A stretch of DNA of 64,000 nt. Source: an uncultured bacterium (GTDB lineage Bacteria > Patescibacteriota > Minisyncoccia > Phycocordibacterales > DATDWN01). The notes beneath the pieces were generated by a model that saw nothing but the letters and a program-made list of their open reading frames with translations, was not told the DNA's origin and did no database searches. This document shows, one piece after another, positions 11,510 through 57,308 of this stretch (the stretch's first letter is position 1; each line of letters opens with the position of its first letter). Where the stretch lies: contig CAIQCQ010000038.1 in assembly GCA_903870365.1 (NCBI GenBank), positions 7,478 to 71,477 on the forward strand, read 5' to 3'. The translations under genes and the position numbers were made by a program.

Positions 11510-13732
11510 ATGAAAAAGTTTATCACTAACATCACAAAAAAGTTTTCCTCCCCGCGCTTTTTGTCTGGGGTGTTGATGGTAGGGATGATGGTTGTTGTGT
11601 GTATGCCGATAGGTGTATATGCGGATCCATTGGGAACTTGTACTCTTGCGAGTGGCAACAATATGCCCAACCTCGTAACACTAACTGATTGTAATACTTT
11701 TCGTGCAGACGATATTAAAAATGGAAAAACTGGAGGTGGTTGGGTAGCAGATACAGGAGGAGCACAAGGTAATTCAGTCACCCCAGGAAATGCACCAAAA
11801 CCGTCATCATCAATAATACAGGATGTTGCAGAAGGTGCCATAAACACAATCATAGGTAACTTACTTATAGTGGTGATGGCTCTTATATCAGGACTTCTTG
11901 GTCTTGCAGGTCTTGTTTTGGACTATGTTATAAAACTAAGTGTTACAGATCTTGCAAGTAATATTAATAGTATTGCCGGTATCAATGTAGCATGGAGACT
12001 CATTCGTGATCTATGTAACATGTCTTTTATATTTATTCTCCTCTACTACGCCATCATGATGGTATTTGGACAAAAAGATGCGCGTAAAATCATTGTGCCC
12101 ATCATTATTGCCGCACTCCTCATTAATTTTAGTCTGTTTTTTACTAAAATAATTATTGATGCATCAAATATTATTACAGTGTCTTTTTATAATTCTATTT
12201 CTCAAGCAACAGGACCATCAATAGTTCTTGGAGTAAACAACACCAACACCTTTTCCGGGGCTTTTATGAAATCACTCAATCTAAGCAGTATATACTCTTC
12301 TAGTATAAAAGTTCCAGCAGGAAACTCTGGTGTATATATTACTCAAATTATCGGTAGTGCATTATTTATGCTAATTGCTTGTTTTATTTTTCTTGCAATG
12401 GCGGTTCTTTTTATCATTCGTTACCTCACATTTATTTTACTCCTTATCATGTCACCGTTCGGATATGTTGCTTCTGCTATTCCAGGATTAAACGGTCTTT
12501 CAAAAAAATATTGGGAGACACTCACAGGTCAAGCACTTTTTGCTCCGATATTTATGATTATGATTTGGATTACACTGACTTTGGCTAGTAGTTTTACAAT
12601 GGCAACGGGAACAAGTGCAGCAAGTCTTGGTGCTGCTTTTTCCAACCCATCATCAACCACAATCGGAACAATGGTAAATTTCATTTTACTTGCAGGACTA
12701 CTCATATATTCACTTATTATTTCAAAAAGCTATGCAACTCAGGGGGGAATTGTTAGTGGAAAAATAGTCGGGGCGGGAATGGGTATGGCTGGAGGGGCGT
12801 TGTTTGGAGGCGCTTCATACCTAGGCACACGTAGTTTTGGAAAACTTGGAACAATGGCGGCTAACAATGATAGCCTGCGAGAAGCTGCGAGTAAAAAAGG
12901 TGTTGCCGGATCCATGGCAAGACTTAGCCTTAAAACTGCTCAAACTGCACAATCATCGTCCTTTGATGCTCGAAATATATCCGGTTTTGGAAAAGCAACT
13001 GATTTTATAGGGGCTGGTAGTTTTGGTAAAAAGGGTAATGCTCCAAAAGGGTATAAGGGTGTGTTGGATGACAAACAAAAAGCTTACAACGAAGCGGATA
13101 AAAAACGTGCAGAGGGGCTAAAGGTGACTGACACAGTGGCTGATGAAGCAAAGAAAAAACTTGATAAAGAAAAAACACTTAAAGAAGAAAACGCCAAAAA
13201 CTTAGACAATGAAATTGATCTTAAGAAGAAACAAAATAATGATTTAACTCAAGAAATCACAAATCTAGAAAAAGATTTGAAAAAGGCCGTTACCCCAAGA
13301 AAAAGAGCCCGAAACAAAGGAGAAATTTATAGACTACAGACAGTTTTAGAAGACAAAAGATCTACAATTTCAGAATCAAGAGAAAAATTAGCTCAAATAG
13401 AGAAAAATAAAACAAACTTGGATACCGATTTCAATGCTCGTGAAGATATTAAAAAACTTATAAAAGATTCTGGTGGAGATAAAGATAAAAAAATATCAAG
13501 TACAAGTGACGATAGAATAAATTCATATGCTAATACTGTTGGTGATCAAAAAACACGAAATTTTGTCATATTTAATCCTGAATTTAATAAAGAAAGAGCA
13601 CGAAAGATACGTAAACTTGCAAAAACAAAATCAACAAAAGAAACACTTGAAGAGCTTCTCAAAGAAAATGGTGATATAAAAAAAGATGATAAAAAAGAAG
13701 AGACACCTGTAGCAGAACCAAAAACAACATAG
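11510..13732 (+). CDS. Polytopic membrane protein, VirB6/TrbL-like candidate, with long K/E-rich coiled-coil tail
   Basis: Signal peptide, at least 6 predicted TM segments between residues 110 and 420, C-terminal 300 aa of charged heptad-like repeats; call is from genomic context with VirB4, PrgI and pilin genes. Confidence 0.45.
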   Translation: MKKFITNITKKFSSPRFLSGVLMVGMMVVVCMPIGVYADPLGTCTLASGNNMPNLVTLTDCNTFRADDIKNGKTGGGWVADTGGAQGNSVTPGNAPKPSSSIIQDVAEGAINTIIGNLLIVVMALISGLLGLAGLVLDYVIKLSVTDLASNINSIAGINVAWRLIRDLCNMSFIFILLYYAIMMVFGQKDARKIIVPIIIAALLINFSLFFTKIIIDASNIITVSFYNSISQATGPSIVLGVNNTNTFSGAFMKSLNLSSIYSSSIKVPAGNSGVYITQIIGSALFMLIACFIFLAMAVLFIIRYLTFILLLIMSPFGYVASAIPGLNGLSKKYWETLTGQALFAPIFMIMIWITLTLASSFTMATGTSAASLGAAFSNPSSTTIGTMVNFILLAGLLIYSLIISKSYATQGGIVSGKIVGAGMGMAGGALFGGASYLGTRSFGKLGTMAANNDSLREAASKKGVAGSMARLSLKTAQTAQSSSFDARNISGFGKATDFIGAGSFGKKGNAPKGYKGVLDDKQKAYNEADKKRAEGLKVTDTVADEAKKKLDKEKTLKEENAKNLDNEIDLKKKQNNDLTQEITNLEKDLKKAVTPRKRARNKGEIYRLQTVLEDKRSTISESREKLAQIEKNKTNLDTDFNAREDIKKLIKDSGGDKDKKISSTSDDRINSYANTVGDQKTRNFVIFNPEFNKERARKIRKLAKTKSTKETLEELLKENGDIKKDDKKEETPVAEPKTT

Positions 13733-13734
13733 AC

Positions 13735-14592
13735 ATGGATGAATCAACACAAGAGATAAAAGAATATATCGATAAACTCCCAAAACCACTCCAACAAGCG
13801 GTGCTTGGACAGGACTGGCACAAACGATTAGCTGAGATTAGTCAGAAATATTCACTACACCTGGACCAGATTTCATCACTGGAATACGAAGTGTTGTTTG
13901 TCATGATTGGTATGGAACCAGAAACAGATTTGGTGTCCAACATTCAAACAGAATTGGCAGTATCAAAAATCCTCGCTGAACAACTGGCAGGGGATATTAA
14001 TGTGCGAATTTTTCAATTTATTATGAAGTCGTTGGAAGAAAAAACGCCAGAGAAAGTAGAAAGGTTTGTGGAGTCGAGTAACGAGATAAGAGATACAAAT
14101 AAGGAGAAAGAAAATATACAAATACCCGAACAAGAAGATTTACCATCATTTCCACCTGTGGTGAGTGTACCAGCATCAGTGACTATACCGAGTCCACAAG
14201 TCATTGCGGTACCACAACAAACTATTCAAAAGGAAATTATTCCTATGGCTATGGAGACTCCACATCAAAAAATTACTGAACCACCAGTGAATTTGCCGGG
14301 GGAGGAAATAGTAGATGGAATAAAGAATGACGAATTAAGAATTACGAATAATGGGGAGGAGAACAGAATCTCGAATCTAGAAGCTGGAATTAAGAATGAT
14401 GTTATTGAAAATACTGTTCCATTCGTAATTCGTAATTCTGACATCGTAATTCCACAAAAATCATCCCTCGCTGACACCAAACTCAACTCCATTGTTACCT
14501 CTACGAGTGAGACTGTGGTTAAAGAAACACCTGCTCCTACACCAATTGTAAAAAGTTATGCGAGTGATCCATATAGGGAAGCGATAGAATAA
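13735..14592 (+). CDS. Hypothetical protein carrying an in-frame heptamer-repeat segment
   Basis: No TM; residues NDELRITNNGEENRISNLEAGIKNDVIENTVPFVIRNSDIVIP are encoded by repeat family 3 (14317-14453). Confidence 0.4.
   Translation: MDESTQEIKEYIDKLPKPLQQAVLGQDWHKRLAEISQKYSLHLDQISSLEYEVLFVMIGMEPETDLVSNIQTELAVSKILAEQLAGDINVRIFQFIMKSLEEKTPEKVERFVESSNEIRDTNKEKENIQIPEQEDLPSFPPVVSVPASVTIPSPQVIAVPQQTIQKEIIPMAMETPHQKITEPPVNLPGEEIVDGIKNDELRITNNGEENRISNLEAGIKNDVIENTVPFVIRNSDIVIPQKSSLADTKLNSIVTSTSETVVKETPAPTPIVKSYASDPYREAIE
14317..14453. repeat. Heptamer-type palindromic repeat, family 3, in frame within CDS 13735..14592
   Basis: Left arm ggaataaagaatgacgaattaagaattacgaataatgg, right arm ccattcgtaattcgtaattctgacatcgtaattcc. 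Confidence 0.55.
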
Positions 14593-14716
14593 GGGAGTGA
14601 AGCTAGAATCTAGAAGATTGAAATACCTAGAATAGAGTAGGATGGATTCCGGATCCCTAGGTAGTAGAGTAAAACTCACTACGAGAAAAGCGAGTCTAGA
14701 ATGATGAAAAGATGCA

Positions 14717-15241
14717 ATGAAAAAAGAAATTCTGCCGATTCAAATTATTGAAAACAAAATATATATTATTCGTGGTCTAAAAGTTATGCTGGATAGTGAT
14801 TTGGCACATCTCTATATGGTCAAACCTATTGCATTACGACAACAAGTTAAAAGAAACAAAGAAAGGTTTCCTGGTGACTTTGTATTCCAACTGACAAAAG
14901 AAGAGGCTCACATCCTGGTATCACAAAATGTGATACCTAATAGTCGCTACTTTGGGGGATCATTACCCTATGCATTCACTGAACATGGAGTTGCCATGCT
15001 CTCTTCTGTACTTAAAAGTAAGCGGGCAATAGAAATCAACATTTTGATCATCCGTGCTTTTGTAAAAATTCGTGAAATGTTGTCTGTCCACAAAGATATT
15101 GTTTCAGCCATTGAAAAACTGCAGCGAGAACAGGCTGATCAAAAAGGGCATATAATAGCCATCGTACAAGCAATCAATAAACTACTTGCACCACCAAAAG
15201 AAAAGAGGAAGAATACAATTGGTTTTCGGACGAGAGAGTAG
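14717..15241 (+). CDS. ORF6N-domain (KilA-N/Rha-like) DNA-binding protein
   Basis: IENKIYIIRGLKVMLDSDLAHLYMVKPIALRQQVKRNKERFPGDFVFQLTKEE matches the ORF6N consensus. Confidence 0.6.
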   Translation: MKKEILPIQIIENKIYIIRGLKVMLDSDLAHLYMVKPIALRQQVKRNKERFPGDFVFQLTKEEAHILVSQNVIPNSRYFGGSLPYAFTEHGVAMLSSVLKSKRAIEINILIIRAFVKIREMLSVHKDIVSAIEKLQREQADQKGHIIAIVQAINKLLAPPKEKRKNTIGFRTRE

Positions 15242-15253
15242 TAACATATACCT

Positions 15254-15688
15254 ATGCGTTTTCAAGTTCCACAATTTATTGAAATAGAGGACAAAGTTAT
15301 TGGCCCACTAACCATCAAACAATTTGTTTACCTTGCTGGTGGTGCGGGCATGGCTTTTGTGGCATATACATTTCTCCCTGGATTTATCGCTCTGTTTGTT
15401 ATTGCGGGCATCATTGGTTTGGCTCTTGCTTTAGCTTTTTATAAAGTAAACAACAAACCATTCATTGATATGCTCGAGTCTGCGTTTGGTTTTTACACTG
15501 GAGAAAAACTATACATCTGGAAAAAAGTAGATAAAAAAATAATTCCAAAAGAACAAGCGACCGGACAAGAAGAACTTCGTGAGGTATACGTACCTCGTTT
15601 GTCAGATAGTAAATTAAAAGAATTGAGTTGGAGTTTAGATGTAAATGAAAATTTAGGAGGAGGGAAAGAGACAAGAGATAAGAGATAA
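15254..15688 (+). CDS. PrgI-family (VirB3-like) small membrane protein
   Basis: IEIEDKVIGPLTIKQFVYLAGGAGMAFVAY followed by a second TM helix; the last residues ETRDKR are encoded by repeat family 1. Confidence 0.5.
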   Translation: MRFQVPQFIEIEDKVIGPLTIKQFVYLAGGAGMAFVAYTFLPGFIALFVIAGIIGLALALAFYKVNNKPFIDMLESAFGFYTGEKLYIWKKVDKKIIPKEQATGQEELREVYVPRLSDSKLKELSWSLDVNENLGGGKETRDKR

Positions 15689-15760
15689 GAGATACGAACA
15701 AAAAATATCCTACTCATTTTTCTTATTTCATATCTCTTATCTCAAATCTCATATCTCTAT
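15665..15760. repeat. Heptamer-type palindromic repeat, family 1, no cargo
   Basis: Left arm gagacaagagataagagataagagatacg, right arm tcatatctcttatctcaaatctcatatctctat, about 30-nt loop. Confidence 0.6.
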
Positions 15761-15777
15761 GTTATAATTTACCCACC

Positions 15778-16425
15778 ATGGCCACTAGTGCTCCACAATC
15801 AAAAGCAACACAAGACTTTGTTCCCATCCAAGAAGTACGTGATGGCATCATCACCCTCAAAGACGGGTCTCTTCGTGCAATTCTCCTCGCTTCATCACTC
15901 AACTTTTCTCTCAAATCAGAAGACGAACGCAACGCGATCCTGTTTCAATTTCAAGATTTTCTCAACTCACTCGATTTTCCTGTCCAAATAGCTATCCAGT
16001 CACGTCGATTGGATATTCGACCATATATTGCACTACTCGAAGACCGCTACAAGGAGCAGGTCAATGACCTCATGAAGATACAAACTCAAGAGTACATTGA
16101 GTTCATCAAGAATTTTACTGAAAACACCAACATTATGACCAAAAGTTTTTTTGTTGTCGTACCATACACACCAGCTATTCTCAAAGGGGAGTCACTTACT
16201 AAATTTAATTTTCTTGGTAAACAAACCCAAAGCGAAAAAGCTTCACAAAAAACAGAAAGTTTCGAAGAAAACCGTACACAAATCGAGCAACGTCTCGGGG
16301 TTGTAGAACAAGGTCTCGTCAGCTCTGGTGTTCGTGTCGTCCGTCTTGGTACCGAAGAGGTGATCGAATTATTTTACAAGATTTTCAATCCTGGTGACAC
16401 CGAAAAACCTATCAAATTGAGCTAG
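15778..16425 (+). CDS. VirB4/TraE-family ATPase, N-terminal fragment (CagE_TrbE_VirB-like domain)
   Basis: PIQEVRDGIITLKDGSLRAILLASSLNFSLKSEDERNAILFQFQDFLNSLDFPVQIAIQSRRLDI matches the N-terminus of Gram-positive-type VirB4 proteins; the ORF stops at a 10-bp hairpin and continues as 16890..18695. Confidence 0.55.
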   Translation: MATSAPQSKATQDFVPIQEVRDGIITLKDGSLRAILLASSLNFSLKSEDERNAILFQFQDFLNSLDFPVQIAIQSRRLDIRPYIALLEDRYKEQVNDLMKIQTQEYIEFIKNFTENTNIMTKSFFVVVPYTPAILKGESLTKFNFLGKQTQSEKASQKTESFEENRTQIEQRLGVVEQGLVSSGVRVVRLGTEEVIELFYKIFNPGDTEKPIKLS

Positions 16426-16444
16426 TAAGTTCAATTTGATAGGT

Positions 16445-16868
16445 TATAGAGATAAGAGATTTGAGAAATGAGATATGAAAAATCCATCTGATGAAAAAGA
16501 AACAATTAAAAAATTTTCTGATTTATCTGCATGGCAAGAGGGCCACCGTCTTGTAATTCAGGTATACACCATAACAAAATTTTTTCCTAAAGAAGAATTA
16601 TTCGGAATTACAAACCAAATCAGAAGAGCTGTTGTTTCTATTACTTCAAATATTGCGGAGGGTTTTGGTAGAGGAACAAGTCAGGATAGAGTTCATTTTT
16701 ATATTATAGCAATCGGATCACTTAATGAGGTGCAGAATCAGTTGCTTATATCAAAAGATATCGGTTATTTAAATCACACAGAATGGAATGAATTAGAAAA
16801 ACAAGGTATCATTGTACACAAGATACTCAGTGGTTTGATTAGAAAATCCAAATCAAATCTCTTATCTC
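16445..16868 (+). mobile_element. Inverted-repeat-flanked cassette with a four-helix-bundle gene inserted in virB4
   Basis: GAGATAAGAGATTTGA at 16449-16464 and its perfect reverse complement TCAAATCTCTTATCTC at 16853-16868 bracket CDS 16475..16879. Confidence 0.5.
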
Positions 16869-16879
16869 AAATCTCATAA
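16475..16879 (+). CDS. Four-helix-bundle protein (23S rRNA intervening-sequence protein family)
   Basis: WQEGHRLVIQVYTITKFFPKEELFGITNQIRRAVVSITSNIAEGFGR...SLNEVQNQLLISKDIGYL is the family signature. Confidence 0.75.
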   Translation: MKNPSDEKETIKKFSDLSAWQEGHRLVIQVYTITKFFPKEELFGITNQIRRAVVSITSNIAEGFGRGTSQDRVHFYIIAIGSLNEVQNQLLISKDIGYLNHTEWNELEKQGIIVHKILSGLIRKSKSNLLSQIS

Positions 16880-16889
16880 CTCTATTCAC

Positions 16890-18695
16890 ATGTCCCTACT
16901 CGATTTTTTAAAAAAGAAAGAACCTCTCCAGATCACCTCTATCCTGCCACAGGAAATATACGAGGCGGGCGCTTTGGAGTTGGCTGATGTTATCGCTCCA
17001 TCAGCACTCAAAATCAGTCCAAAAGAACTCAACTTGGGTGAAAAAATCGTCCGATCGTTTTTTGTTATCTCATATCCACGATATCTCAATGAAAGTTGGT
17101 TTGCGCCGATCATTAATTTGGACAAAGTTTTTGATATTTCCATCTATATAGAGCCGATTGAAACAGCCGCTGCACTCAAATCCTTTCAGAAAAAAGTGGC
17201 CGAGGTGCAAAGTCAAATCATGACTCGAGAAGAAAAGGGTTTGGTCCGAAACCCCATGCTCGATACTGCATATCAAGACCTCGAGCAACTTCGTGACAAT
17301 CTCCAGCAAGCCCAGGAGAAGCTTTTTAATGTTGGAGTGTATATCACTATGTATGGCGACAAGACAGAGGAGCTCGACAAAATCGAATCTGAAATCAAAT
17401 CTATCCTCGAAGCCAAGCTCGTGTATGTCAAACCCGCTCTCTTTCAACAAGAGCAAGCCTTTAAAACTGTGATGCCTGTTGCGACCGATCTTCTTGGTGT
17501 CTATAGTAAACTTAATTCTTCACCCCTCTCATCACTCTTTCCTTTTATTTCTTTTGACCTGACTTCTGACAAAGGTATTTTGTACGGCGTCAACCGCCAC
17601 AACTCATCCCTCGTCCTCTTTGATCGTTTTTCTTTGGAAAACTATAACTCTATTACCTTTGCAAAGTCTGGTTCCGGAAAATCATACGCTACCAAGCTGG
17701 AAATCTTGCGAACCCTCATGTTTGATACCTCGGTCATGGTTCTCGACCCAGAAAATGAATATGAGTACATGGCTGAAGCTGTTGGTGGACGACATTTCAA
17801 TATCTCACTCAACTCTGAACACCACATCAACCCCTTTGACCTGCCAATACCGACAGAAGGTGAGTCCTTTGCCAATGTCTTACGATCAAACATCGTCAAC
17901 CTTGTTGGACTCTTTCGTATTATGATGGGAGGTCTCACGCCAGAAGAAGATGCGATCATTGACCGAGCTATCACTGAAACATATGCACTAAAAGACATAA
18001 CTGCTGATTCTGATTTTACCAACACCGAGCCACCACTCCTCTCTGATTTTGAATTGGTGCTCTCTGGTATGGAAGGGGGGGATTCACTGGCTCAACGATT
18101 GACAAAATACACCAAGGGTACTTGGGCTGGTTTTATCAACCGTCCCACAAACATCGACATCAACAAAAAGTTTGTAATTTTTTCTATCCGTGACATGGAA
18201 GACGAGCTCAAGCCGATCGCTATGTATATCATCATGCATTATATCTGGGCAGCTATCCGACGTGACTTGAAAAAACGTCTCCTCGTCATTGATGAAGCCT
18301 GGTGGATGATGAAATCAGAGGACACCGCATCATTCCTCTTGTCACTCGCAAAACGGGGCCGAAAATACTACCTTGGTGTAGCTACTATTACCCAAGACGT
18401 GGATGACTTTTTGAAGTCACCGTACGGTCTACCGATCATCACCAACTCATCTATCCAAGTCTTACTCAAACAATCACCATCATCTGTCGACAAACTACAG
18501 CAAACATTTAACCTGACAGACGAAGAAAAATATTTACTCCTCGAATCAGCTGTGGGGGAGGGTATATTCTTTGCTGGTCTCAAACATGTGGCAATCAAGA
18601 TTATTGCCAGCTACACCGAAGATCAGATCATCACCTCTGATCCAAGCCAGATTTTGGCAATCAAGAAAGCGAAGATGGGATTGGCTAAGAGTTAA
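16890..18695 (+). CDS. VirB4/TraE-family T4SS ATPase, C-terminal part with ATPase domain
   Basis: Walker A FAKSGSGKSYATK, Walker B RLLVIDEAWWMM, ITQDVDDF; its N-terminal 200 aa (IAPSALKISPKELNLGEKIVRSFFVISYPRYL) match the second half of the VirB4 N-domain. Confidence 0.85.
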   Translation: MSLLDFLKKKEPLQITSILPQEIYEAGALELADVIAPSALKISPKELNLGEKIVRSFFVISYPRYLNESWFAPIINLDKVFDISIYIEPIETAAALKSFQKKVAEVQSQIMTREEKGLVRNPMLDTAYQDLEQLRDNLQQAQEKLFNVGVYITMYGDKTEELDKIESEIKSILEAKLVYVKPALFQQEQAFKTVMPVATDLLGVYSKLNSSPLSSLFPFISFDLTSDKGILYGVNRHNSSLVLFDRFSLENYNSITFAKSGSGKSYATKLEILRTLMFDTSVMVLDPENEYEYMAEAVGGRHFNISLNSEHHINPFDLPIPTEGESFANVLRSNIVNLVGLFRIMMGGLTPEEDAIIDRAITETYALKDITADSDFTNTEPPLLSDFELVLSGMEGGDSLAQRLTKYTKGTWAGFINRPTNIDINKKFVIFSIRDMEDELKPIAMYIIMHYIWAAIRRDLKKRLLVIDEAWWMMKSEDTASFLLSLAKRGRKYYLGVATITQDVDDFLKSPYGLPIITNSSIQVLLKQSPSSVDKLQQTFNLTDEEKYLLLESAVGEGIFFAGLKHVAIKIIASYTEDQIITSDPSQILAIKKAKMGLAKS

Positions 18696-18765
18696 GAGAT
18701 GTGAGACCTGAGAAACGATAGACATCATATATTTTTCTCTTTTCTCTTTTCTCATATCTCTATTC
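18690..18765. repeat. Heptamer-type repeat, family 1, degenerate copy
   Basis: gttaagagatgtgagacctgagaaacgatag ... ttctcttttctcttttctcatatctctattc. Confidence 0.45.
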
Positions 18766-18768
18766 AAC

Positions 18769-19188
18769 ATGGCAGAACAACAATATCAAAAAAGGCCGTT
18801 ACCCCAAGAAAAAGAGCCCGAAACAAAGGAGTTGAGTATTGGCAATTGGATGTTAAAAGGTTCTGTCGCTCTGTTTTTTGATACAACAGGAGCTTTGATA
18901 AATCTCCTACCTGTGGCAGGCCAAATTCTTGAAGAATTTAACGATCTATTTGCTGACGGAGTTTTTTTATTGTGGTTTACCCTTGATGGTGTCAAATACT
19001 CAAAAAACACTATGTTTGGTAGTTTTGTACTGAAATTTATACCTATATTAAATATGCTACCAGAATACACACTTATGATTATCATTATGTATATGAAATC
19101 AAAAAAAGACGCTGCGGTGAGAAAAACTGTCGGTGGTGGCAGTATTGCCCGTACCATTGCAAACCAAAACAAAAGTCCCAACGCATAG
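18769..19188 (+). CDS. Small membrane protein
   Basis: Two or three hydrophobic segments; N-terminal 43 nt are identical to 13280-13322. Confidence 0.4.
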   Translation: MAEQQYQKRPLPQEKEPETKELSIGNWMLKGSVALFFDTTGALINLLPVAGQILEEFNDLFADGVFLLWFTLDGVKYSKNTMFGSFVLKFIPILNMLPEYTLMIIIMYMKSKKDAAVRKTVGGGSIARTIANQNKSPNA

Positions 19189-19237
19189 TGTGAACAAAAG
19201 ACAAACACAACACTTTTCTTATGCTAAAATATAATTA

Positions 19238-20266
19238 ATGAAATTTTTTTCTAAAACTTTTATTTTTTTTCTTATTCTAGCTTCAAGCTTGTTGCTTCCA
19301 GCTTCTATTCCTGCCCACGCCCAGCTCAATGTTGGTCTCAGTCCTGCTGATATTTCAACTGATGTCGAGCCAACAAATCCTGGACCATTTCAACAAATCA
19401 GTGTCACCATAGACAGTTATGCCACCGACCTCAATGGGGTCAGTATTTCCTGGGTAGTTAATGGAAAAAAGGTTGTCTCTGGTATTGGTAAAAAGGGTAT
19501 CAGTCTGACCACCGGAGCCATTGGTAAACAAACCTCTATTAATATCACCATCGACTCTATTACCGGCACCATTACCAAAAACATCACCATTATCCCAGCC
19601 ACAGTGGATATGATATGGGAAGCCAACACATATACTCCACCATTTTTTAAAGGTAAAGCCATCTTTAGTCCAGAAAGTGTGGTGACATTTGTAGCAATAC
19701 CGCACCTCATACGAAACGGGGTAGAGGTCTCACCAAAAAATCTCATATACACATGGTCAAACAACGGCACTGTCCTCGGTAGTCAAAGTGGCTATGGTAA
19801 AAGTACCCTCAGTATCGCGGGCAGTATCATCCCACGACCCTTTGATATCACGGTAGAGGCTAGTGATCCGAACACAGGCTCTGTGGCCGACGGAGAGACT
19901 GTTTTGGCATCACAGACTCCTTTTGTACTCTTTTATAAAAATGATCCACTCTACGGAGTACAGTACGAACATGCACTGACTGGTGTTATTCCACTCACCA
20001 CACAGGAAATGGAGATCACTGCAGTCCCATATTACTTTAGTGCTCGATCTATGTTTGATAATCTCCTTTCCTACAATTGGGAAATCAATGGTACACCGAT
20101 CGGTGACGGTATAAACAGTCCGGACAAAGTCTTTCGCCGTACAGGCACAGCTGTTGGACAATCAAATGTTTCAGTGTCAACGACACAGAGTGCTACAATG
20201 TTTCAGACAGCCAACCAGGCAGTAACAATTGATTTTCAGAATAGTAGTACGCAAGTAGGGTTGTAG
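19238..20266 (+). CDS. Secreted protein with cleavable signal peptide
   Basis: MKFFSKTFIFFLILASSLLLPASIPAHAQ then a beta-rich Thr/Ser/Gly-rich region. Confidence 0.4.
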   Translation: MKFFSKTFIFFLILASSLLLPASIPAHAQLNVGLSPADISTDVEPTNPGPFQQISVTIDSYATDLNGVSISWVVNGKKVVSGIGKKGISLTTGAIGKQTSINITIDSITGTITKNITIIPATVDMIWEANTYTPPFFKGKAIFSPESVVTFVAIPHLIRNGVEVSPKNLIYTWSNNGTVLGSQSGYGKSTLSIAGSIIPRPFDITVEASDPNTGSVADGETVLASQTPFVLFYKNDPLYGVQYEHALTGVIPLTTQEMEITAVPYYFSARSMFDNLLSYNWEINGTPIGDGINSPDKVFRRTGTAVGQSNVSVSTTQSATMFQTANQAVTIDFQNSSTQVGL

Positions 20267-20342
20267 GAGAATAGAAATATGAATGAAGAATTATGATGCA
20301 CAATAATAGAGACCTAGGGAAAATTAGGAATAAGAAAATATT

Positions 20343-21347
20343 ATGAGAAAAAATACACAAAAAACTATTTTGAATATACTGCGGGTGACCATGATCAGTG
20401 CTTTTTTGTTTGCGAGTGCGACCTCGATCGCTATGGCGCAAGCACAAACGCCACAACCTTATACGGTATTAGCACCACTTCCGGGAACAACAATTGATGC
20501 AAATTGCACAGGTACAGCATGCACAAGTGATCTCTCTCATTATCTTCCCGGTATTTTTAATCTCATGATCGGTGTGGCGGCAGTGGCAGCCTTTGTCGCC
20601 ATTACTATTGGTGGTTTTGAATATATGTTTACTGATGTTCCAGGGGTTAAAGCGAGTGCAAAAGGTATGGTGTCCAATGCCTTTTGGGGTCTTGGTTTTA
20701 TTATTTTTGCTTATGCCATCCTCAATACCATCAACCCAGTGCTCCTCAAGGGAAGTTTGAATATTACTCCGCCAACAGTGGCAAGTGGTGGTGGACTAAC
20801 CACAGGAACTGGTGGTGCCACAACAAATGTCGGTGGAAATATCGCTGGAGTTGCAATGACAACAGATCAACAGACAGCATCAGATGCTGTGAGAGCAGCT
20901 TTAAAATCCCAAAGTGGTGGAGTTGTTACGGCTTATGCAGATCCTTGTACAAGGGGTCAAACAACTGGTTGTGTTGATTTAAATGGATTAACACCATCAA
21001 CCCAAAATGGTTTAGAATTATTGGGGAAAAATTGTGGTAGTGGATGTAAGGTTGTTATAAGTGGTGGTACCGAGGCGGGACACAGTACTGGATCAGATCA
21101 CAATAAAGGTAACGGTGTTGATATTGAACCAAACGCACAACTTACAAACGCTGTAACAAATAATTTATCTAATGATCCTTCTATTTGTAAAGCGGGGGCA
21201 GGAGGAACTTGTAATGGCCTTGCAGCATGTAATAAATATACAACATCAGTTGGTGGACAGACTGCAACTTATCTTTGGGAACCCACAGGTTCAACGTGTG
21301 GAGGAAATGTTCCTTCATCAGCTCCTCATTGGCATGCAAGCTTTTAA
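20343..21347 (+). CDS. T4SS pilin-like (VirB2/TrbC-like) N-terminus fused to a LAS/M15-type metallopeptidase-like C-terminal domain
   Basis: Signal peptide; LPGIFNLMIGVAAVAAFVAITIGGFEYMFTD...AFWGLGFIIFAYAILNTINP is a two-helix pilin pattern; C-terminus has GHSTGSDHNKGNGVDI (SxHxxGxAxD-like) and APHWHASF (EPWH-like) zinc-ligand motifs. Confidence 0.45.
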   Translation: MRKNTQKTILNILRVTMISAFLFASATSIAMAQAQTPQPYTVLAPLPGTTIDANCTGTACTSDLSHYLPGIFNLMIGVAAVAAFVAITIGGFEYMFTDVPGVKASAKGMVSNAFWGLGFIIFAYAILNTINPVLLKGSLNITPPTVASGGGLTTGTGGATTNVGGNIAGVAMTTDQQTASDAVRAALKSQSGGVVTAYADPCTRGQTTGCVDLNGLTPSTQNGLELLGKNCGSGCKVVISGGTEAGHSTGSDHNKGNGVDIEPNAQLTNAVTNNLSNDPSICKAGAGGTCNGLAACNKYTTSVGGQTATYLWEPTGSTCGGNVPSSAPHWHASF

Positions 21348-22744: not shown

Positions 22745-23476
22745 TTATTTCGTCCCTCCGCGTACTCTCTTTCGAAAGTATAACTCCTGAAGAACAGTAA
22801 ACACATTACTCGTCACCCAATACAGTGAAATTGCTGCTGAAATACTCCATGAAATAAAGAATACGAGCACAGGAAAAAAATATTTCATTTGTGTCTGGAA
22901 GGATTTCATCATTTCTGCAGTACTGTTTTTATCAGCACCTTTTCCCTCGAGATCTGCGGGTGTGGCATACTTTATCTGGAAAAATGTACTAATACCAGCA
23001 AGGAGAGCTAAAAAGACACTCTTTTGTGCAATATCAGAGATAAACAAAAAATTCATTGCAATATGCGCTGGAGCAGAAACAAAATGATACAGCTGTGTCA
23101 TATCAACTTGGGGAAGTCCTGATTTCAAAAACACTCGGTAGAGGGCAATGATGATGGGGAGTTGAATGATAAGGACAAAAAAACCAGCAAATGGATTAAT
23201 ATTCTTTTCTTTATAGAGTTCAACTGTTTTTAATGTTTGTTGCTCTTTGTCTTCTTTGTATTTTTCTTTAATTACTCTTAGATCTTTCTCTATTTCCTTC
23301 ATTTCCATCTGAGCGTAGGTAGCTCTCATGGCCAAAGGGAAGAGGACTAGTTTGACGATGATAGTAAATAAAATAACAACCAATCCAGCTCCAGCCCAAG
23401 GGAGAAGGTCAAAAAGGAAAATGAGACCATTATAGAGTGGTTGATAAAAAACAATAGTAAAAAATTGGGTAATCAT
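22745..23476 (-). CDS. yidC: Membrane protein insertase YidC (short form)
   Basis: NPFAGFFVLIIQLPIIIALYRVF and 5 TM segments; sits in the rpmH-rnpA-yidC operon. Confidence 0.85.
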   Translation of the reverse strand: MITQFFTIVFYQPLYNGLIFLFDLLPWAGAGLVVILFTIIVKLVLFPLAMRATYAQMEMKEIEKDLRVIKEKYKEDKEQQTLKTVELYKEKNINPFAGFFVLIIQLPIIIALYRVFLKSGLPQVDMTQLYHFVSAPAHIAMNFLFISDIAQKSVFLALLAGISTFFQIKYATPADLEGKGADKNSTAEMMKSFQTQMKYFFPVLVFFISWSISAAISLYWVTSNVFTVLQELYFRKRVRGGTK

Positions 23477-23594
23477 GGTTACGAATTATATTGGTAAATA
23501 TAATTCCCTTACTCGGACGATGTGAATAAGATTACTTATTCACCCGCTCCTCGATGGGAATTATACGAATAAGATAGAATACAAGAATAGGGGA

Positions 23595-23930
23595 CTACAT
23601 AATACCTGATTGTGTCAGTAATTGTAGCACCGTTCCATTAATTTCACTAAACGTACTTTTTTCAGCACCTTTTTTAAAACTATATACACCATAAAAACCA
23701 GGTTGTATTTTTATAAGGACTTTTGTGAGGGTATTGTACCCACGTCGACGGAGTCGATTACGATCAACAGCACTTTTTGCAACCTTTTTAGAGCACAAAA
23801 AAGAAAACTGACTTGGTGTTTGGTCTGTTTTCTTGTAGATATATAGGGAAAGAACAGGGGAATGATAGCTATACCCCCGACCAAGGGTCTTAAACTCGGT
23901 TTTACTGATTCTGAGGGTGCTTGGAAGCAT
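23595..23930 (-). CDS. rnpA: RNase P protein component
   Basis: KKVAKSAVDRNRLRRRGYN, the RnpA RNR motif. Confidence 0.8.
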   Translation of the reverse strand: MLPSTLRISKTEFKTLGRGYSYHSPVLSLYIYKKTDQTPSQFSFLCSKKVAKSAVDRNRLRRRGYNTLTKVLIKIQPGFYGVYSFKKGAEKSTFSEINGTVLQLLTQSGIM

Positions 23931-24026
23931 AGATTTATACAGTCTATAAAGTCCTTAAAGTCAAAAGTTTGTAAAGTTAGGGAATTTATCTCTACTTTAT
24001 AGACTTTATGGACTTGAGACTTTTAA

Positions 24027-24173
24027 CTACTTTTCCGATGATACAGACAATGATTTTCGGCCTTTTCGGCGTCTCTGAAGAAGGGTTCGTCGGCCCCCAG
24101 CAGTCTTTGTACGAGCAAGAAAGCCGTGTGTAGTAGCTCGTTTTCGTTTTTTTGGATTATATGTGAATGACAT
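24027..24173 (-). CDS. rpmH: 50S ribosomal protein L34
   Basis: Hand-translated [48 protein letters not shown]; below the 60-aa ORF-track cutoff. Confidence 0.8.
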
Positions 24174-24412
24174 AGTTTTTTTGGAAATGGCTAAATTTAG
24201 ATGTAGTCCTAGGCGGGCAAGGAATTTGATTCCGAGCTGTACTACTCTCGTACAGTGAGGATCAAATTATCGTGGCCCAACAACGGAATACGCTAAATGT
24301 AGCCGTTTCCGCTTGTACACATATTATTAACACGAAATAAACTTTTTTACAACTTCCTTGTTTCGTCGACACCTATATAATATGTGATTGATAAAAAGAA
24401 ATTTTAATTCAC

Positions 24413-25762
24413 ATGGAAGAAACAACTATCGATACAAAACAAATTTGGGATAAGGTACTCACTGAAATTGAGTTATCTATATCAAAACCAAATTTTAATA
24501 CATGGTTTAAAGACACATATATCGCAAAATTTGATGATGGTAGTATTCTTTTATCAGTACCAAACAACTTTGTTGAAGAATGGCTTTCAAGTAAATTTCA
24601 TACACTCATTCTTAAATCACTCCGTAATATTTCAACCACTATTCACTCACTTGAATATGTTATTACAAAAGAAGATACTCGAAAAAATTCATTAAAAGAA
24701 AAAACCATTCTCATTAACAAAGAACTTCCTCTTGAGGACTACTACATCAACAGGGAAGACAACCTCAATCCACGATATACATTTGATAATTTTATTGTTG
24801 GACCGTTTAATGAACTGGCACATGCTGCTGCACAAGGTGTTATTAAAAAACCAGGACTGACATACAACCCACTCTTTATTTATGGTAATACTGGCCATGG
24901 TAAGACTCATTTACTCCAGGCAATTGGAAACCATATAAAAAATAGTGGTAAAAAAGTCTTTTATATTACTTCGGAAAAATTTAGTCAGGAGTTGGTTAAT
25001 GCCCTCCAGATGAATAAACCAAACTTTTTCAAAGAAAAGTATCGTAAATATGATGTGTTGATTATGGATGATATTCAGTTTATGTCTGGTAAAATAAAAA
25101 CTCAAGAAGAACTCTTTCATCTCTTTAATCATCTATACGACAATAATAAACAGATTATTTTTTCTTCAGATAAACACCCAAGTTATATTCAAGATCTTGA
25201 GGAACGTCTCCGAAGTCGTTTTTCTGCGGGTATGGTAGTGGATATTCCTGCACCAGAAGCAGAATCTCGAGTAGCTATCATTAAATCAAAAATAGCTCAG
25301 GGTGGCACAAAGCTTTCTGAAGAAGTTATTAATTTTCTTGCATACTCTGTCACGGGAAACATTCGTGAACTTGAGGGTATTATCAACTCTATTGTCTGTC
25401 AGACTCAGTTAAAGGATCGTGAATTAAGTTTACATGAGATAAAAAACTTCATTAAAAGTAGTGCAAAACCAAAAAAGAATGTTTCTACAAAGGAAGTGGT
25501 TAAAACAGTAGCTGACTTCTACCATATAGAGGAAAATTTAATTTATGAAAAAACTCGAAAAAAAGAGATCATTAAACCTCGTCAGATTATTATGTATATC
25601 CTCCGTGAAGAATTTGCTATATCCTACCCAGCCATAGGGGAGAGATTAGGAGGTCGTGATCACACCACCGTCATGCATTCATGTGAGAAAATCAAGAATG
25701 ATATTTTAAAAGATCAAAACTTATCTGCAGAAATCAACCAATTGCGCGCAATTCTTGTTTAG
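24413..25762 (+). CDS. dnaA: Chromosomal replication initiator DnaA
   Basis: AAA+ Walker A GNTGHGKTHLL, box VII, C-terminal DNA-binding domain (DHTTVMHSCEKI). Confidence 0.95.
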   Translation: MEETTIDTKQIWDKVLTEIELSISKPNFNTWFKDTYIAKFDDGSILLSVPNNFVEEWLSSKFHTLILKSLRNISTTIHSLEYVITKEDTRKNSLKEKTILINKELPLEDYYINREDNLNPRYTFDNFIVGPFNELAHAAAQGVIKKPGLTYNPLFIYGNTGHGKTHLLQAIGNHIKNSGKKVFYITSEKFSQELVNALQMNKPNFFKEKYRKYDVLIMDDIQFMSGKIKTQEELFHLFNHLYDNNKQIIFSSDKHPSYIQDLEERLRSRFSAGMVVDIPAPEAESRVAIIKSKIAQGGTKLSEEVINFLAYSVTGNIRELEGIINSIVCQTQLKDRELSLHEIKNFIKSSAKPKKNVSTKEVVKTVADFYHIEENLIYEKTRKKEIIKPRQIIMYILREEFAISYPAIGERLGGRDHTTVMHSCEKIKNDILKDQNLSAEINQLRAILV

Positions 25763-32331: not shown

Positions 32332-32335
32332 AATT

Positions 32336-32513
32336 TTAAATTTCGAATTTCCAATTTCGACATTGTTTTCTTACGAGCAAGACGAGTTAGAAATACAAGA
32401 AGTACTCTTGTGGTGGAAACAATTTCGAATTTTTGAATGATTAAATTTAAAATTAATTCATTAAAACATTGTTTCGAAATTCAAAATTCAAAATTCGAAA
32501 TTCGAAATTTATC
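32336..32513. repeat. Heptamer-type palindromic repeat array, family 2 (GAAATTC/AATTTCG)
   Basis: aatttcgaatttccaatttcgacattgttttc ... ggaaacaatttcgaatttttgaatgatt ... acattgtttcgaaattcaaaattcaaaattcgaaattcgaaattt; three mutually complementary blocks. Confidence 0.6.
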
Positions 32514-33044: not shown

Positions 33045-33253
33045 ATATGGATAGAATATAGAAATTAGAAATAAGAATCAAGTAAAAAGGGAAACTCACA
33101 GTTTTCCGCGAGTTTATAGGTATTTACAAAAAACTTTCATAATCTGGACAGGGTCGCGTATAAATATCAAAAAATATTCGTAGACGTATTAGACATACGG
33201 CGGAGAATATTTTTTGATATTTAGACGATGAGATTGCGCCAGATTTGGAAGTT

Positions 33254-34264: not shown

Positions 34265-34494
34265 GACGGTATTATATAGCAAGAAATATCTTTGTCGAAA
34301 CAGGAAAGAAGAAAAAAGAAATAGAAAAATAATAAACAAGAGGGAATCGTAGTAAAACTGTGTTTCTTCTTCCGTATCTCGTCTTTCTTTCAAGAGGGTT
34401 GACAGAAAATGTATAATATGCTAGACTCTCCCTGGAGCTGTCGGTTTGCATATTTGCGAACTGACACGCTTTTTTCTTTGTCTATTTTTCAGGA

Positions 34495-34642
34495 AATAAA
34501 TGTCCGAGCGACTGGGCCTTTGGTTTACGAGTGTATTTCACGAGGACGCTCTGGTGTTTGCTTTACGGCCACCTCTGGAGCTATCCTTTGTCAATCATTT
34601 AACTTTCTTTAATTTTATTGAAAGTGTCGCTCGGACATTTAT
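34495..34642. other. Inverted-repeat-flanked GC-rich element (candidate ncRNA or MITE)
   Basis: AATAAATGTCCGAGCGAC at 34495-34512 versus GTCGCTCGGACATTTAT at 34626-34642; a 113-nt GC-rich interior; lies between the pilB 3' end and the ruvB 5' end. Confidence 0.3.
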
Positions 34643-34830
34643 GTTCTGAAAACCTCGAGATATTTCAAAAAAGATTCACGGATAAATTTTTGCTAAAATT
34701 TTCCTCGTGCTCGGCTCAGTCATCCTCGCAAGGAACTTTTTTCGAAACATCTCTCGGAAGTGCTACGATATCTGTGTATCATTATTCATAAATAGCGTCG
34801 GTAGTGCAAGTCATTTTTACACTACACCTC

Positions 34831-38377: not shown

Positions 38378-38869
38378 ATGAAAGAATCCATTACCAGTGC
38401 AGAGGCAATGAAAGGTTTCGCTGATAAATTTTTGTCACGTATACAACCGCGGGGTAAGACGGCTACTGTGGTGGGTCTGTATGGTGACCTTGGTGCAGGT
38501 AAGACGACATTTACTCAAGCTGTAGCTGAGGCACTAGGCATTACAGAGTCTGTAGTTAGTCCGACGTTTGTTATAATGAAAAGGTATGAGATAAGAGATA
38601 TGAGACACGAGATACGAGAGGAAAAATCAAACGTAAATCAAATCTCAAATCTCATTTCTCATTTCTCAACATTATTTCACATTGATGCGTACCGTTTGGA
38701 GAAAAGTTCTGAACTTCTCAATCTTGGTTGGTCTGATATTATTTCTCATCCCGAGAATTTGATTTTGATCGAGTGGCCAGAGCGGGTGGCGGATGTGATG
38801 CCAGAGCATATTAAAATTAATTTTACTCATGTGTCAGAGAATGAGCGGGAAGTGGAAATAATAGATTAA
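38378..38869 (+). CDS. tsaE: tRNA t6A37 biosynthesis protein TsaE, with in-frame repeat insertion
   Basis: P-loop GLYGDLGAGKTTF, SPTFVIMKRY, IDAYRL, LIEWPE; about 25 extra residues EIRDMRHEIREEKSNVNQISNLISHFS come from repeat family 1. Confidence 0.8.
   Translation: MKESITSAEAMKGFADKFLSRIQPRGKTATVVGLYGDLGAGKTTFTQAVAEALGITESVVSPTFVIMKRYEIRDMRHEIREEKSNVNQISNLISHFSTLFHIDAYRLEKSSELLNLGWSDIISHPENLILIEWPERVADVMPEHIKINFTHVSENEREVEIID
38586..38668. repeat. Heptamer-type palindromic repeat, family 1, in frame within tsaE
   Basis: atgagataagagatatgagacacgagatacgagagg ... aaatcaaatctcaaatctcatttctcatttctc. Confidence 0.65.
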
Positions 38870-38893
38870 TTTCGAAATTCAAAATTTATAACC
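38868..38893. repeat. Heptamer-type repeat, family 2, short copy between tsaE and polA
   Basis: taatttcgaaattcaaaatttataacc. Confidence 0.4.
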
Positions 38894-57213: not shown

Positions 57214-57220
57214 GATAGAA

Positions 57221-57293
57221 GTACGAATTAAGAATAATGATGTACGAATGAGAGGAGATATTATTTTTCTTGTTCGTTATTCTTAATTCGTAC
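57221..57293. repeat. Heptamer-type palindromic repeat, family 3
   Basis: Perfect 17-bp inverted repeat GTACGAATTAAGAATAA / TTATTCTTAATTCGTAC. Confidence 0.65.
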
Positions 57294-57308
57294 ATCGTAA
57301 TTCTACCT

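Follow-up and report, generated by a model that had tools for sequence, protein, structure and literature searches.

Introduction

The origin and purpose of ribosomal RNA (rRNA) intervening sequences (IVSs) have been open questions since 1990. In Coxiella burnetii, the IVS in helix 45 of 23S rRNA is 428 nt long, is closed by a 28-bp terminal stem and carries three tandem GACAGAT heptamers before the ATG of an open reading frame (ORF), S23p (PMC4990558). RNase III was shown experimentally to cut this IVS in the stem, at the first repeat, and the authors inferred that S23p is decaying and not expressed, while calling the origin and purpose of the IVS unclear (PMC4990558). ORFs of the same 23S_rRNA_IVP family are also found in rRNA insertions of candidate phyla radiation (CPR) bacteria (PMC11270868). 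Here, we describe an IVS-type cassette encoding a four-helix-bundle (4HB) protein that lies between trsD and virB4 in a type IV secretion system (T4SS) operon of an uncultured Patescibacterium. It was found in a 64-kb stretch of contig CAIQCQ010000038.1, hereafter the window, meaning the whole stretch of DNA analysed.

The genes on either side of the cassette are also known as a pair. TrsD is a stand-alone homologue of the VirB4 N-terminal part; it is the most abundant T4SS component in Patescibacteria, usually adjoins virB4, is essential in Southlakia and also stands alone in pGO1-type plasmids (PMC12102498). A preliminary description of the locus, made from the sequence, had instead proposed that an intact virB4 gene was entered and split by the cassette. 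We find that the two genes were separate without the cassette, and that the cassette is a secondary insertion at their junction.

The trsD-virB4 pair and the ORF-bearing 23S rRNA IVS are already known; 4HB cassettes at protein-coding operon junctions are apparently undescribed. A literature search, which did not cover curated family descriptions, returned no paper on such cassettes or on the generality of heptamer arms. It yielded only the Coxiella IVS paper and general papers on short tandemly repeated repetitive (STRR) sequences or TAACTGA repeats.

Results

trsD and virB4 are separate genes across the clade

Positions are numbered over the whole window; L numbers denote compared loci and P numbers denote protein cluster representatives. 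The conserved T4SS operon in the window is that of a Paceibacteria-type Patescibacterium, with prgI, trsD and virB4 in that order and a pilin-like T4SS gene further downstream. Three ORFs on the plus strand, of 215, 134 and 601 aa, make up the site of interest (Table 1), and their coordinates and the 464-nt insert between the outer two are exactly as first described.

The outer two ORFs do correspond to two parts of VirB4. On the 752-position model of CD1110-family VirB4, the N-terminal ORF (N-piece) covers positions 2-119 and the C-terminal ORF resumes at 178-733, so that the model is covered end to end. The N-piece also aligns to positions 3-166 of 792 and 100-233 of 894 in two further VirB4 models, and to the TrsD/TraD family NF041427 with E = 2e-6, which is under the curated NCBIfam cutoff. 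PF26593 (TraC-like) is precomputed on trsD orthologues. Mapping of the N-piece rests on the NCBIfam models, as PDB sequence searches were of no use with either the N-piece alone or its family profile as the query. In the C-terminal ORF, residues 227-583 align with the ATPase domain of VirB4 (4AG5, E = 2e-39) as well as with residues 446-735 of TrwK. A fused homologue of 797 aa, P0238, spans both pieces in order but lacks the ~25 residues with which the separate VirB4 piece begins.

We compared the junction in 80 loci taken from species-representative genomes (Zambryski-, Taylor- and Nomurabacteria and other Paceibacteria), 79 of which were evaluable. In every one of the 79, separate ORFs encode the N and C parts. 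The stop-to-ATG gap is -4 to 14 nt in 59 of them, and in 52 of these 59 the ORFs are out of frame; the other gaps measure 24-39 nt (4 loci), 64-213 nt (10 loci) and 421-468 nt (6 loci). The closest empty site, L001, whose two proteins are 81% and 91% identical to those of the window, reads AAATTAAGTTAA-ATTAT-ATGTCCCTACTCGAT, i.e. TAA-ATTAT-ATG, and relative to such genomes the 464 nt are indeed an insertion. The lengths of the 120 best N-piece homologues (73-85% identical) all fall within 209-230 aa. When 1.84 billion cluster representatives (50% identity clusters) were searched with the N-piece and the top 150 (36-80% identical) were considered, 149 were 146-443 aa, well under full-length VirB4, and only P0238 was fused.

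Because empty two-gene junctions are found in close and distant relatives alike, the proposal of a cassette that broke up an intact virB4 is refuted: 59 of 79 species representatives have the two genes without any insert remnant. Judged by these sequence comparisons, the supposed split virB4 is an ordinary trsD-virB4 pair. A two-piece VirB4 assembled after translation had also been suggested, and a two-piece VirB4 ATPase is in fact the norm for the clade; it is independent of the cassette. The further suggestion of an inactivated gene is excluded, given the strong conservation.

We also considered an intein or intron as the cause of the split. Both were rejected: the ORFs are in different frames with stop and start codons between them, and Rfam finds no intron. 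Inteins do occur elsewhere in these genes. An intein of ~660 aa lies in frame in the Walker A loop (GAGK/S...VHN/S) of virB4 in L014 (5632-9432), L007, L009 and L049, and these are true gene interruptions, in contrast to the cassette.

A few kb separate the T4SS operon from yidC, rnpA and dnaA (22745-25762, from the same-contig gene list), which places it beside the replication origin region. This placement agrees with that reported for Patescibacteria T4SSs (PMC12102498).

The insert is an IVS-type palindromic cassette

The 464-nt insert (16426-16889) consists of a stop-codon hairpin followed by an arm-bracketed 4HB gene, the only ORF that the cassette carries. Assignment of this ORF to the 23S IVS protein family is unambiguous by score, with 122.5 bits for PF05635 (cutoff 33.8) and 118.6 bits for TIGR02436 (cutoff 24). 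PADLOC gave no match for the 4HB protein, and the exact protein was found only in the trsD-virB4 context. GC content is 31.6% in the 4HB ORF and 41-43% in the flanking genes.

Both repeats noted in the preliminary description are real, and both are larger than it described. Its 10-bp hairpin at the trsD stop codon is the core of an 18+18-nt stem, in which the final 18 nt of trsD form the left arm and an inverted copy of them the right, with the TAG stop at the loop. This hairpin folds with -24.3 kcal/mol (z = -8.9). No terminator was found there in a consensus scan around the cassette, and no T-run follows the hairpin. Likewise, the 16-bp perfect inverted repeat around the 4HB gene (16449-16464 and 16853-16868) is the core of 33-nt arms. 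The right arm encodes the last 9 codons of the 4HB gene and is followed after 4 nt by the virB4 ATG, so an ATG does follow the insert directly. The arm motif occurs 10 times in the window, where 0.06 occurrences are expected.

Folding of the flanks had been proposed as a check. For the RNA of 16396-16905 (510 nt), both the minimum-free-energy and the centroid structures contain the hairpin and a long closing stem formed by the two arms (z = -5.6), and this predicted stem buries the 4HB start codon. The PF05635 ORF, the terminal stem, the heptamers running up to the ATG and the size of ~440 nt all bear out the likeness to the Coxiella IVS (PMC4990558). The segment is an IVS-type palindromic cassette, with a PF05635 (Avd-like) gene in the loop of a long heptamer-armed hairpin.

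Table 1. Features of the trsD-virB4 region and related elements in the window
Feature	Position	Strand	Evidence
prgI (VirB3-like)	15254..15688	+	PF12666 PrgI, E = 3e-10
Cargo-less hairpin, GAGAnnn/nnnTCTC heptamers	15667..15760	+	Inverted repeat of 39 nt, 79% complementary, 14-nt loop
Extended -10-like box TGTTATAAT	15760..15768	+	9 nt upstream of trsD ATG, read from sequence
trsD-like, stand-alone VirB4 N-piece (215 aa)	15778..16425	+	NCBIfam VirB4 models matched at their N-termini
Stop-codon hairpin	16406..16445	+	Arms 16406-16423 / 16428-16445, 18+18 nt, one mismatch (94%), loop AGTA
Left cassette arm	16446..16478	+	Four heptamers GAGATAA GAGATTT GAGAAAT GAGATAT, running into the 4HB ATG
4HB gene (134 aa)	16475..16879	+	PF05635 23S_rRNA_IVP E = 1e-35; TIGR02436 E = 1e-34
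Right cassette arm	16853..16885	+	33 nt, 85% complementary to left arm
virB4, rest of N-terminal domain and ATPase (601 aa)	16890..18695	+	CD1110-family VirB4 model 178-733, E = 9e-111
Cargo-less hairpin of same general type	18689..18765	+	Arm motif at 18689-18706, two mismatches; fold -25 kcal/mol, z = -3.5
Cargo-less element with the cassette's heptamer unit, in frame in tsaE (38378-38869)	38588..38672	+	Fold z = -3.6

The cassette is a patchily distributed secondary insertion

A 4HB gene sits at the exact trsD-virB4 junction in L004/L015, L017, L056, L061, L076 and L078 as well. In a tree of TrsD and VirB4, the cassette loci are scattered, each nested among relatives with an empty junction, and the sister of the window, L001, is itself empty. 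The 4HB proteins at this junction are 27-40% identical to that of the window, compared with 65-91% for the flanking proteins. Elsewhere in the T4SS operon, related cassettes occupy the junction upstream of prgI and the one that separates prgI from trsD, and all 17 4HB genes of the T4SS loci lie on the operon strand. The 4HB genes of L025 (upstream of prgI) and L004 (between trsD and virB4) are 72% identical and have similar arms, and L078 carries 70%-identical 4HB paralogues at adjacent junctions. Since related cassettes are found at different junctions in these loci, the arms and ORF move as a unit. These comparisons of sequences show that the cassette is a secondary, patchily distributed insertion into the trsD/virB4 stop/start junction. 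Alignment to the empty counterparts in L001 and L090 reveals no direct target-site duplication at the filled site.

One close relative has a cargo-less element at the same junction. In L090 (TrsD 81% identical), a 152-nt hairpin with the unit AAATCCA occupies 744-895. It has the TAGTAA double stop and a stop-codon hairpin in common with the window, and its right side keeps the ATTAT-ATG spacer of the empty sites.

Stop-codon palindromes are templated on host sequence

In the window, L056, L076, L078, L064 and L090, the first nucleotides of the insert repeat, in inverted orientation, the final 8-19 nt of the upstream gene. The resulting stop-codon stems are 8-18 nt long, whereas at 66 junctions with gaps <40 nt they are 4-8 nt (one of 10). 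In L076, AAGCCACTAAAAGTGAGCT/AGCTCACTTTTAGTGGCTT forms a perfect 38-nt palindrome with its axis inside the stop codon; the palindrome of L056, also perfect, spans 34 nt and derives from the differing coding sequence of that locus. L078 has a stop-codon palindrome at the end of prgI as well. Because these palindromes derive from differing coding sequences, the inverted copy must be templated on host sequence. Either a fold-back or hairpin-end intermediate produced the copy when the element inserted, or intrastrand template switching maintains its identity.

Cargo-less hairpins, some with the heptamer unit of the resident cassette

Hairpins with heptamer arms and no gene in the loop accompany the cassette. 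Those with the heptamer unit of the resident cassette occur at 0.58 sites per 10 kb in the same locus vs 0.048 in other loci (~12-fold). The window has four GAGAnnn-unit sites, one of them in frame in tsaE. By an 8-mer test, the hairpin between prgI and trsD and the tsaE element have the cassette's own unit, with 11-12 and 18 8-mers in common with the cassette arms, respectively; the hairpin after virB4 is related by motif only.

The hairpin between prgI and trsD folds with -31.7 kcal/mol (z = -5.3) and supplies the prgI stop codon: the last codons of prgI and its stop lie inside the left arm. The PrgI product accordingly ends in ...GGGKETRDKR, compared with the ...NPLTGEDGK..K tail of its relatives. 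The downstream hairpin overlaps the virB4 stop codon and ends just before the ATG of the next ORF (CTCTATTCAACATG). The tsaE element adds ~25 residues between the SPTF and HxDxYRL motifs, and the match to the TsaE model TIGR00150 falls into two stretches, with residues 8-75 aligned to model positions 5-68 in the first. In their behaviour, the cargo-less copies resemble palindromic elements of the repetitive extragenic palindrome (REP) or Rickettsia palindromic element (RPE) type, without target-site duplication or transposase. We considered whether heptamers serve as stop signals in three frames and rejected this, since stop triplets are missing from several units and translation continues through the tsaE copy.

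Other repeats and an additional gene were noted in the window. A heptamer hairpin with the unit ACGAATT/AAGAATT lies at 14316-14454, in frame in a T4SS-cluster protein (ORF 13735-14592). The segment that it encodes, NELRIT...IRNS, is also present in the L001 orthologue, and the element is therefore old and translated. Further intergenic inverted repeats lie at 32332-32511, 57218-57296, 38853-38894, 1616-1763, 33157-33227 and 34486-34652. Several of them use other 7-8-nt units (AATTTCGA, ACGAATT), and the 64-kb window holds no cognate 4HB gene for them. Between a T4SS-cluster gene and prgI there is an inserted ORF6N-domain gene (14717-15241; PF10543; PADLOC candidate defence family PDC-S05, E = 9e-58), which L092 has and L001 and L004 lack. 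Upstream of it (14600-14650) are heptamer-like repeats of the form CTAGAAn, with no matching right arm.

4HB cassettes are widespread at operon junctions

The preliminary description had proposed a search for the same inverted repeat around other 4HB genes; inverted arms of this general build are common there. We examined 75 4HB genes from unrelated metagenomes, with 318 ORFs on the same contigs as controls. Inverted arms with tandem periodicity flank 47 of the 75 (7-nt period in 39, 8-nt in 8) and 1 of the 318 controls, and the units differ between cassettes. The upstream neighbour is co-oriented with the 4HB gene in 58 of 64 cases and the downstream neighbour in 47 of 62; both flanking gaps are <150 nt in 27 of 53. 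Judging gene identities from the printed ORF ends, we find cassettes between sdhA and sdhB (three loci), dnaB and recR, gmk and nadD, lpxA and the next gene, and prgI and trsD, and none inside a gene. Rfam gave no match on any of the 20 loci checked, and no cassette among those was shown to be in rRNA. Other cassettes have the same architecture with other units (AAAGTnn, CAATAAA, TTACGAC, GAAGnnn), as do 4HB genes on Nostoc and Calothrix plasmids, which are flanked by inverted heptamer arrays. These data show a widespread cassette family, co-oriented at operon junctions, in which arms and ORF move as a unit.

The three sdhA-sdhB cases, L118, L141 and L171, are unrelated metagenome contigs in which the cassette lies between apparent succinate dehydrogenase/fumarate reductase flavoprotein and iron-sulfur genes. 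They are a second case of a repeatedly occupied junction between tightly coupled subunit genes.

The 4HB protein and the arms are both constrained

In orthologous or paralogous cassette pairs, the proportion of synonymous differences (pS) is 0.72-0.88, which is saturated, and that of nonsynonymous differences (pN) is 0.10-0.34; the one calculable 4HB pair has a dN/dS of 0.05. Because pN is low while synonymous sites are saturated, the 4HB ORF is under purifying selection. The non-coding arms are conserved far beyond synonymous sites. Between L056 and L076, for example, the right arm is identical at 32 of 32 positions and the left arm is nearly identical. Arm similarity also tracks protein similarity: at least 8 arm 6-mers are shared by all three cassette pairs at ≥75% protein identity, by 52% of pairs at 60-75%, by 12% at 50-60% and by 1-3% below that. 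These patterns suggest that the 4HB protein is probably functional, and they would fit recognition of its own heptamer arms.

Transcription and a proposed processing model

Of 83 orthologous loci, 73 have a -10-like hexamer that matches at 5 or more of its 6 bases and ends 5-11 nt ahead of the trsD ATG; the background is 5%. The TGTTATAAT box of the window is likely, on this pattern, to be the promoter of a nearly leaderless trsD-virB4 transcript. Given that the conserved box is so close to the trsD ATG, such a transcript would have to cross the cassette. At the other end of the cassette, a hexamer of the same quality lies 6-7 nt before the virB4 ATG in 4 of the 7 cassettes at the trsD-virB4 junction (background 5%), and one precedes virB4 in 5 of 62 junctions with gaps ≤14 nt. 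A new promoter at the right end of the cassette was entertained as an explanation and set aside; it holds for those four, and the window's own box is weak. In a consensus promoter scan around the cassette, promoter-like sites were no more frequent than in shuffled sequence.

We propose that the cassette would be transcribed with the operon from the near-leaderless promoter before trsD. The arms may then pair in the RNA into a stem of ~30 bp, which would hide the 4HB start and bring the trsD stop beside the virB4 start. By analogy with the Coxiella IVS, RNase III probably cuts this arm stem. Such a cut would leave a trsD mRNA ending in a protective stop-codon hairpin and a separate virB4 mRNA. 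The insertion would be tolerated because TrsD and VirB4 are separate polypeptides anyway. An RNase III-processed mRNA, one of the outcomes raised in the preliminary description, is plausible on the strength of this analogy.

Discussion

We consider the best overall explanation to be an ancestral trsD-virB4 pair with a secondary IVS-type cassette, processing at the arm stem, and a 4HB protein that recognizes the arms, and we judge this combination likely to be right. The two-gene ancestry and the insertion follow from the comparison with relatives; the functional, arm-recognizing 4HB protein is probable and is the least certain step.

Several points weigh against parts of this explanation. The box before virB4 in the window, CATAAC, matches at 4 of 6 positions. 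RNase III cleavage is carried over from the rRNA IVSs by analogy alone, and a six-frame motif search of the window found no rnc gene or RNase III signature motif. Neither a transposase nor a target-site duplication nor any other sign of mobility was found, and it is from its distribution that the element is called mobile. Co-divergence of arms and protein could reflect shared descent together with structural constraint. Among 53 arm pairs, G:U-type mismatches number 38 and A:C-type mismatches 41. Since there is no excess of G:U over A:C, complementarity at the level of sense RNA is not demonstrably maintained, and a process at the DNA level fits the arm mismatches equally well or better. Finally, an ancient insertion of this type could conceivably have been the original cause of the TrsD/VirB4 split, because cassettes can supply stop codons, as the prgI stop in a hairpin arm illustrates, and can abut starts.

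A broader reading is that PF05635 4HB genes with heptamer arms form an undescribed class of element, ranging from Patescibacteria to cyanobacteria and Bacteroidota, with sequence-specific arm recognition and insertion through fold-back DNA, of which 23S IVSs would be a special case. We put this forward tentatively and with some doubt. If it is true, one heptamer unit may correspond to one subunit of an Avd-like oligomer, cargo-less copies would be acted on in trans, the exact palindromes centred on upstream stops would be traces of the insertion intermediate, and the inserted element would reshape processing of the operon mRNA.

The strongest rival is a purely selfish DNA-level element, whose palindromes insert at gene ends through hairpin or fold-back DNA; the 4HB protein would serve spread, the arms would act as DNA, and effects on the operon would be neutral. 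The patchy distribution, related cassettes at different junctions and the low GC all agree with this, as do arms without G:U bias and the exact host-sequence palindromes centred on the upstream stop codon. So do the nearby cargo-less copies of the cassette's unit, one of them in frame in tsaE in the manner of Rickettsia palindromic elements. However, the cassette encodes no nuclease or transposase, and no target-site duplication was seen. In 58 of 64 cases the 4HB gene points the same way as its upstream neighbour, which suggests that the element depends on transcription or is selected through it, and the -10-like box before virB4 in 4 of 7 junction cassettes suggests accommodation to host expression. 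Long-term retention under purifying selection is a further difficulty, and we regard this alternative as unlikely.

The 4HB protein might instead be a domesticated regulator that binds heptamer arrays at the prgI-trsD, trsD-virB4 and virB4-next gene junctions, controls mRNA processing, stability or coupling, and so sets T4SS stoichiometry. Hairpins of the same general heptamer type do stand at these three consecutive junctions of one operon, the first with the cassette's own unit; the arms are conserved beyond synonymous saturation and co-diverge with the protein; and a 4HB start buried in the predicted stem would permit autoregulation. Most relatives, however, run the T4SS operon with neither cassette nor hairpin, cassettes also occupy unrelated operon junctions, and nucleic-acid binding by this 4HB subfamily is putative only, which together make a regulatory role in this operon quite improbable. 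That an intact single virB4 was recently invaded by the cassette and cut into two separately translatable halves can hardly be right: the halves add up to a full VirB4, the fused 797-aa homologue exists and elements can supply stop codons and abut ATGs, but 59 of 79 species representatives and sister L001 have the two ORFs with no insert, close N-piece homologues are all ~212 aa, and TrsD is known to stand alone in Patescibacteria and pGO1-type plasmids.

The preferred explanation, an ancestral gene pair with a secondary cassette, has practical consequences. Annotators should not take the trsD-virB4 arrangement for a pseudogene or a disrupted gene, and in genomes of CPR bacteria, cyanobacteria and Bacteroidota, heptamer arrays may mislead programs that predict genes or detect repeats. 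Insertions likely uncouple genes that are translationally coupled. Because the cassettes keep a functional protein and co-evolving arms, the purpose of IVS proteins becomes a testable matter.

Comparison with known systems

The gene pair itself is no different from the TrsD-VirB4 pair of other Patescibacteria. As in the TrsD-TrsE/VirB4 pair of pGO1-type Gram-positive conjugation systems and Patescibacteria, a VirB4-N homologue of ~210 aa lies directly upstream of the ATPase and after PrgI/VirB3 (PMC12102498). What is unusual is the 464-nt insertion, which is present in 6 of 79 species representatives.

The cargo-less hairpins resemble elements that are generally known from other bacteria, namely REPs and bacterial interspersed mosaic elements of E. 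coli and the palindromic elements of Rickettsia: they are 80-150 nt long, are repeated, lie at operon junctions and in one case (tsaE) are in frame. Unlike REPs and RPEs, they have arms of tandem heptamers that vary between elements, and some elements carry a protein gene in the loop. Unlike REPs, neither the cassette nor the cargo-less hairpins are associated with a REP-associated tyrosine transposase (RAYT-type) or any other transposase.

Tandem 7-nt intergenic repeats near start codons are also a feature of cyanobacterial STRR sequences and of the heptamers of Beggiatoaceae (PMC4679880). Unlike those repeats, the cassette heptamers form two palindrome arms around a gene. The STRR and Beggiatoaceae papers that we searched do not link their repeats to 4HB genes or hairpin cassettes.

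The 4HB protein is distantly related in fold and family to Avd of diversity-generating retroelements (PF22296 bAvd, E = 0.005; NF033474, E = 0.03). Identification as a retroelement Avd was rejected, with 14.8 bits for NF033474 (cutoff 80) and 17.8 bits for PF22296 (cutoff 40). A scan of ten neighbouring ORFs (11510-21347) turned up no reverse transcriptase.

The closest likeness is to the ORF-containing 23S rRNA IVSs of Coxiella and Leptospira, which encode the same PF05635/TIGR02436 protein family. The cassette measures ~440 nt from arm to arm, compared with 428 nt in Coxiella; in both, a terminal stem of ~28-33 bp surrounds the ORF, tandem heptamers directly precede its ATG and the GC content is below that of the host. 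Unlike a 23S IVS, the window cassette lies in a protein-coding operon junction, with trsD and virB4 as its flanks; in the window, Rfam finds only four tRNAs and no rRNA. It further differs from the Coxiella IVS in its extra stop-codon hairpin and in the cognate cargo-less copies nearby, and in contrast to Coxiella S23p, 4HB proteins of the window type are under purifying selection. Overall, the cassette matches the ORF-bearing 23S IVS in every feature examined except location, with excision by RNase III proposed by analogy. These data indicate that the ORF-bearing rRNA IVS is one form of a larger cassette family that resides mostly at protein-coding operon junctions.

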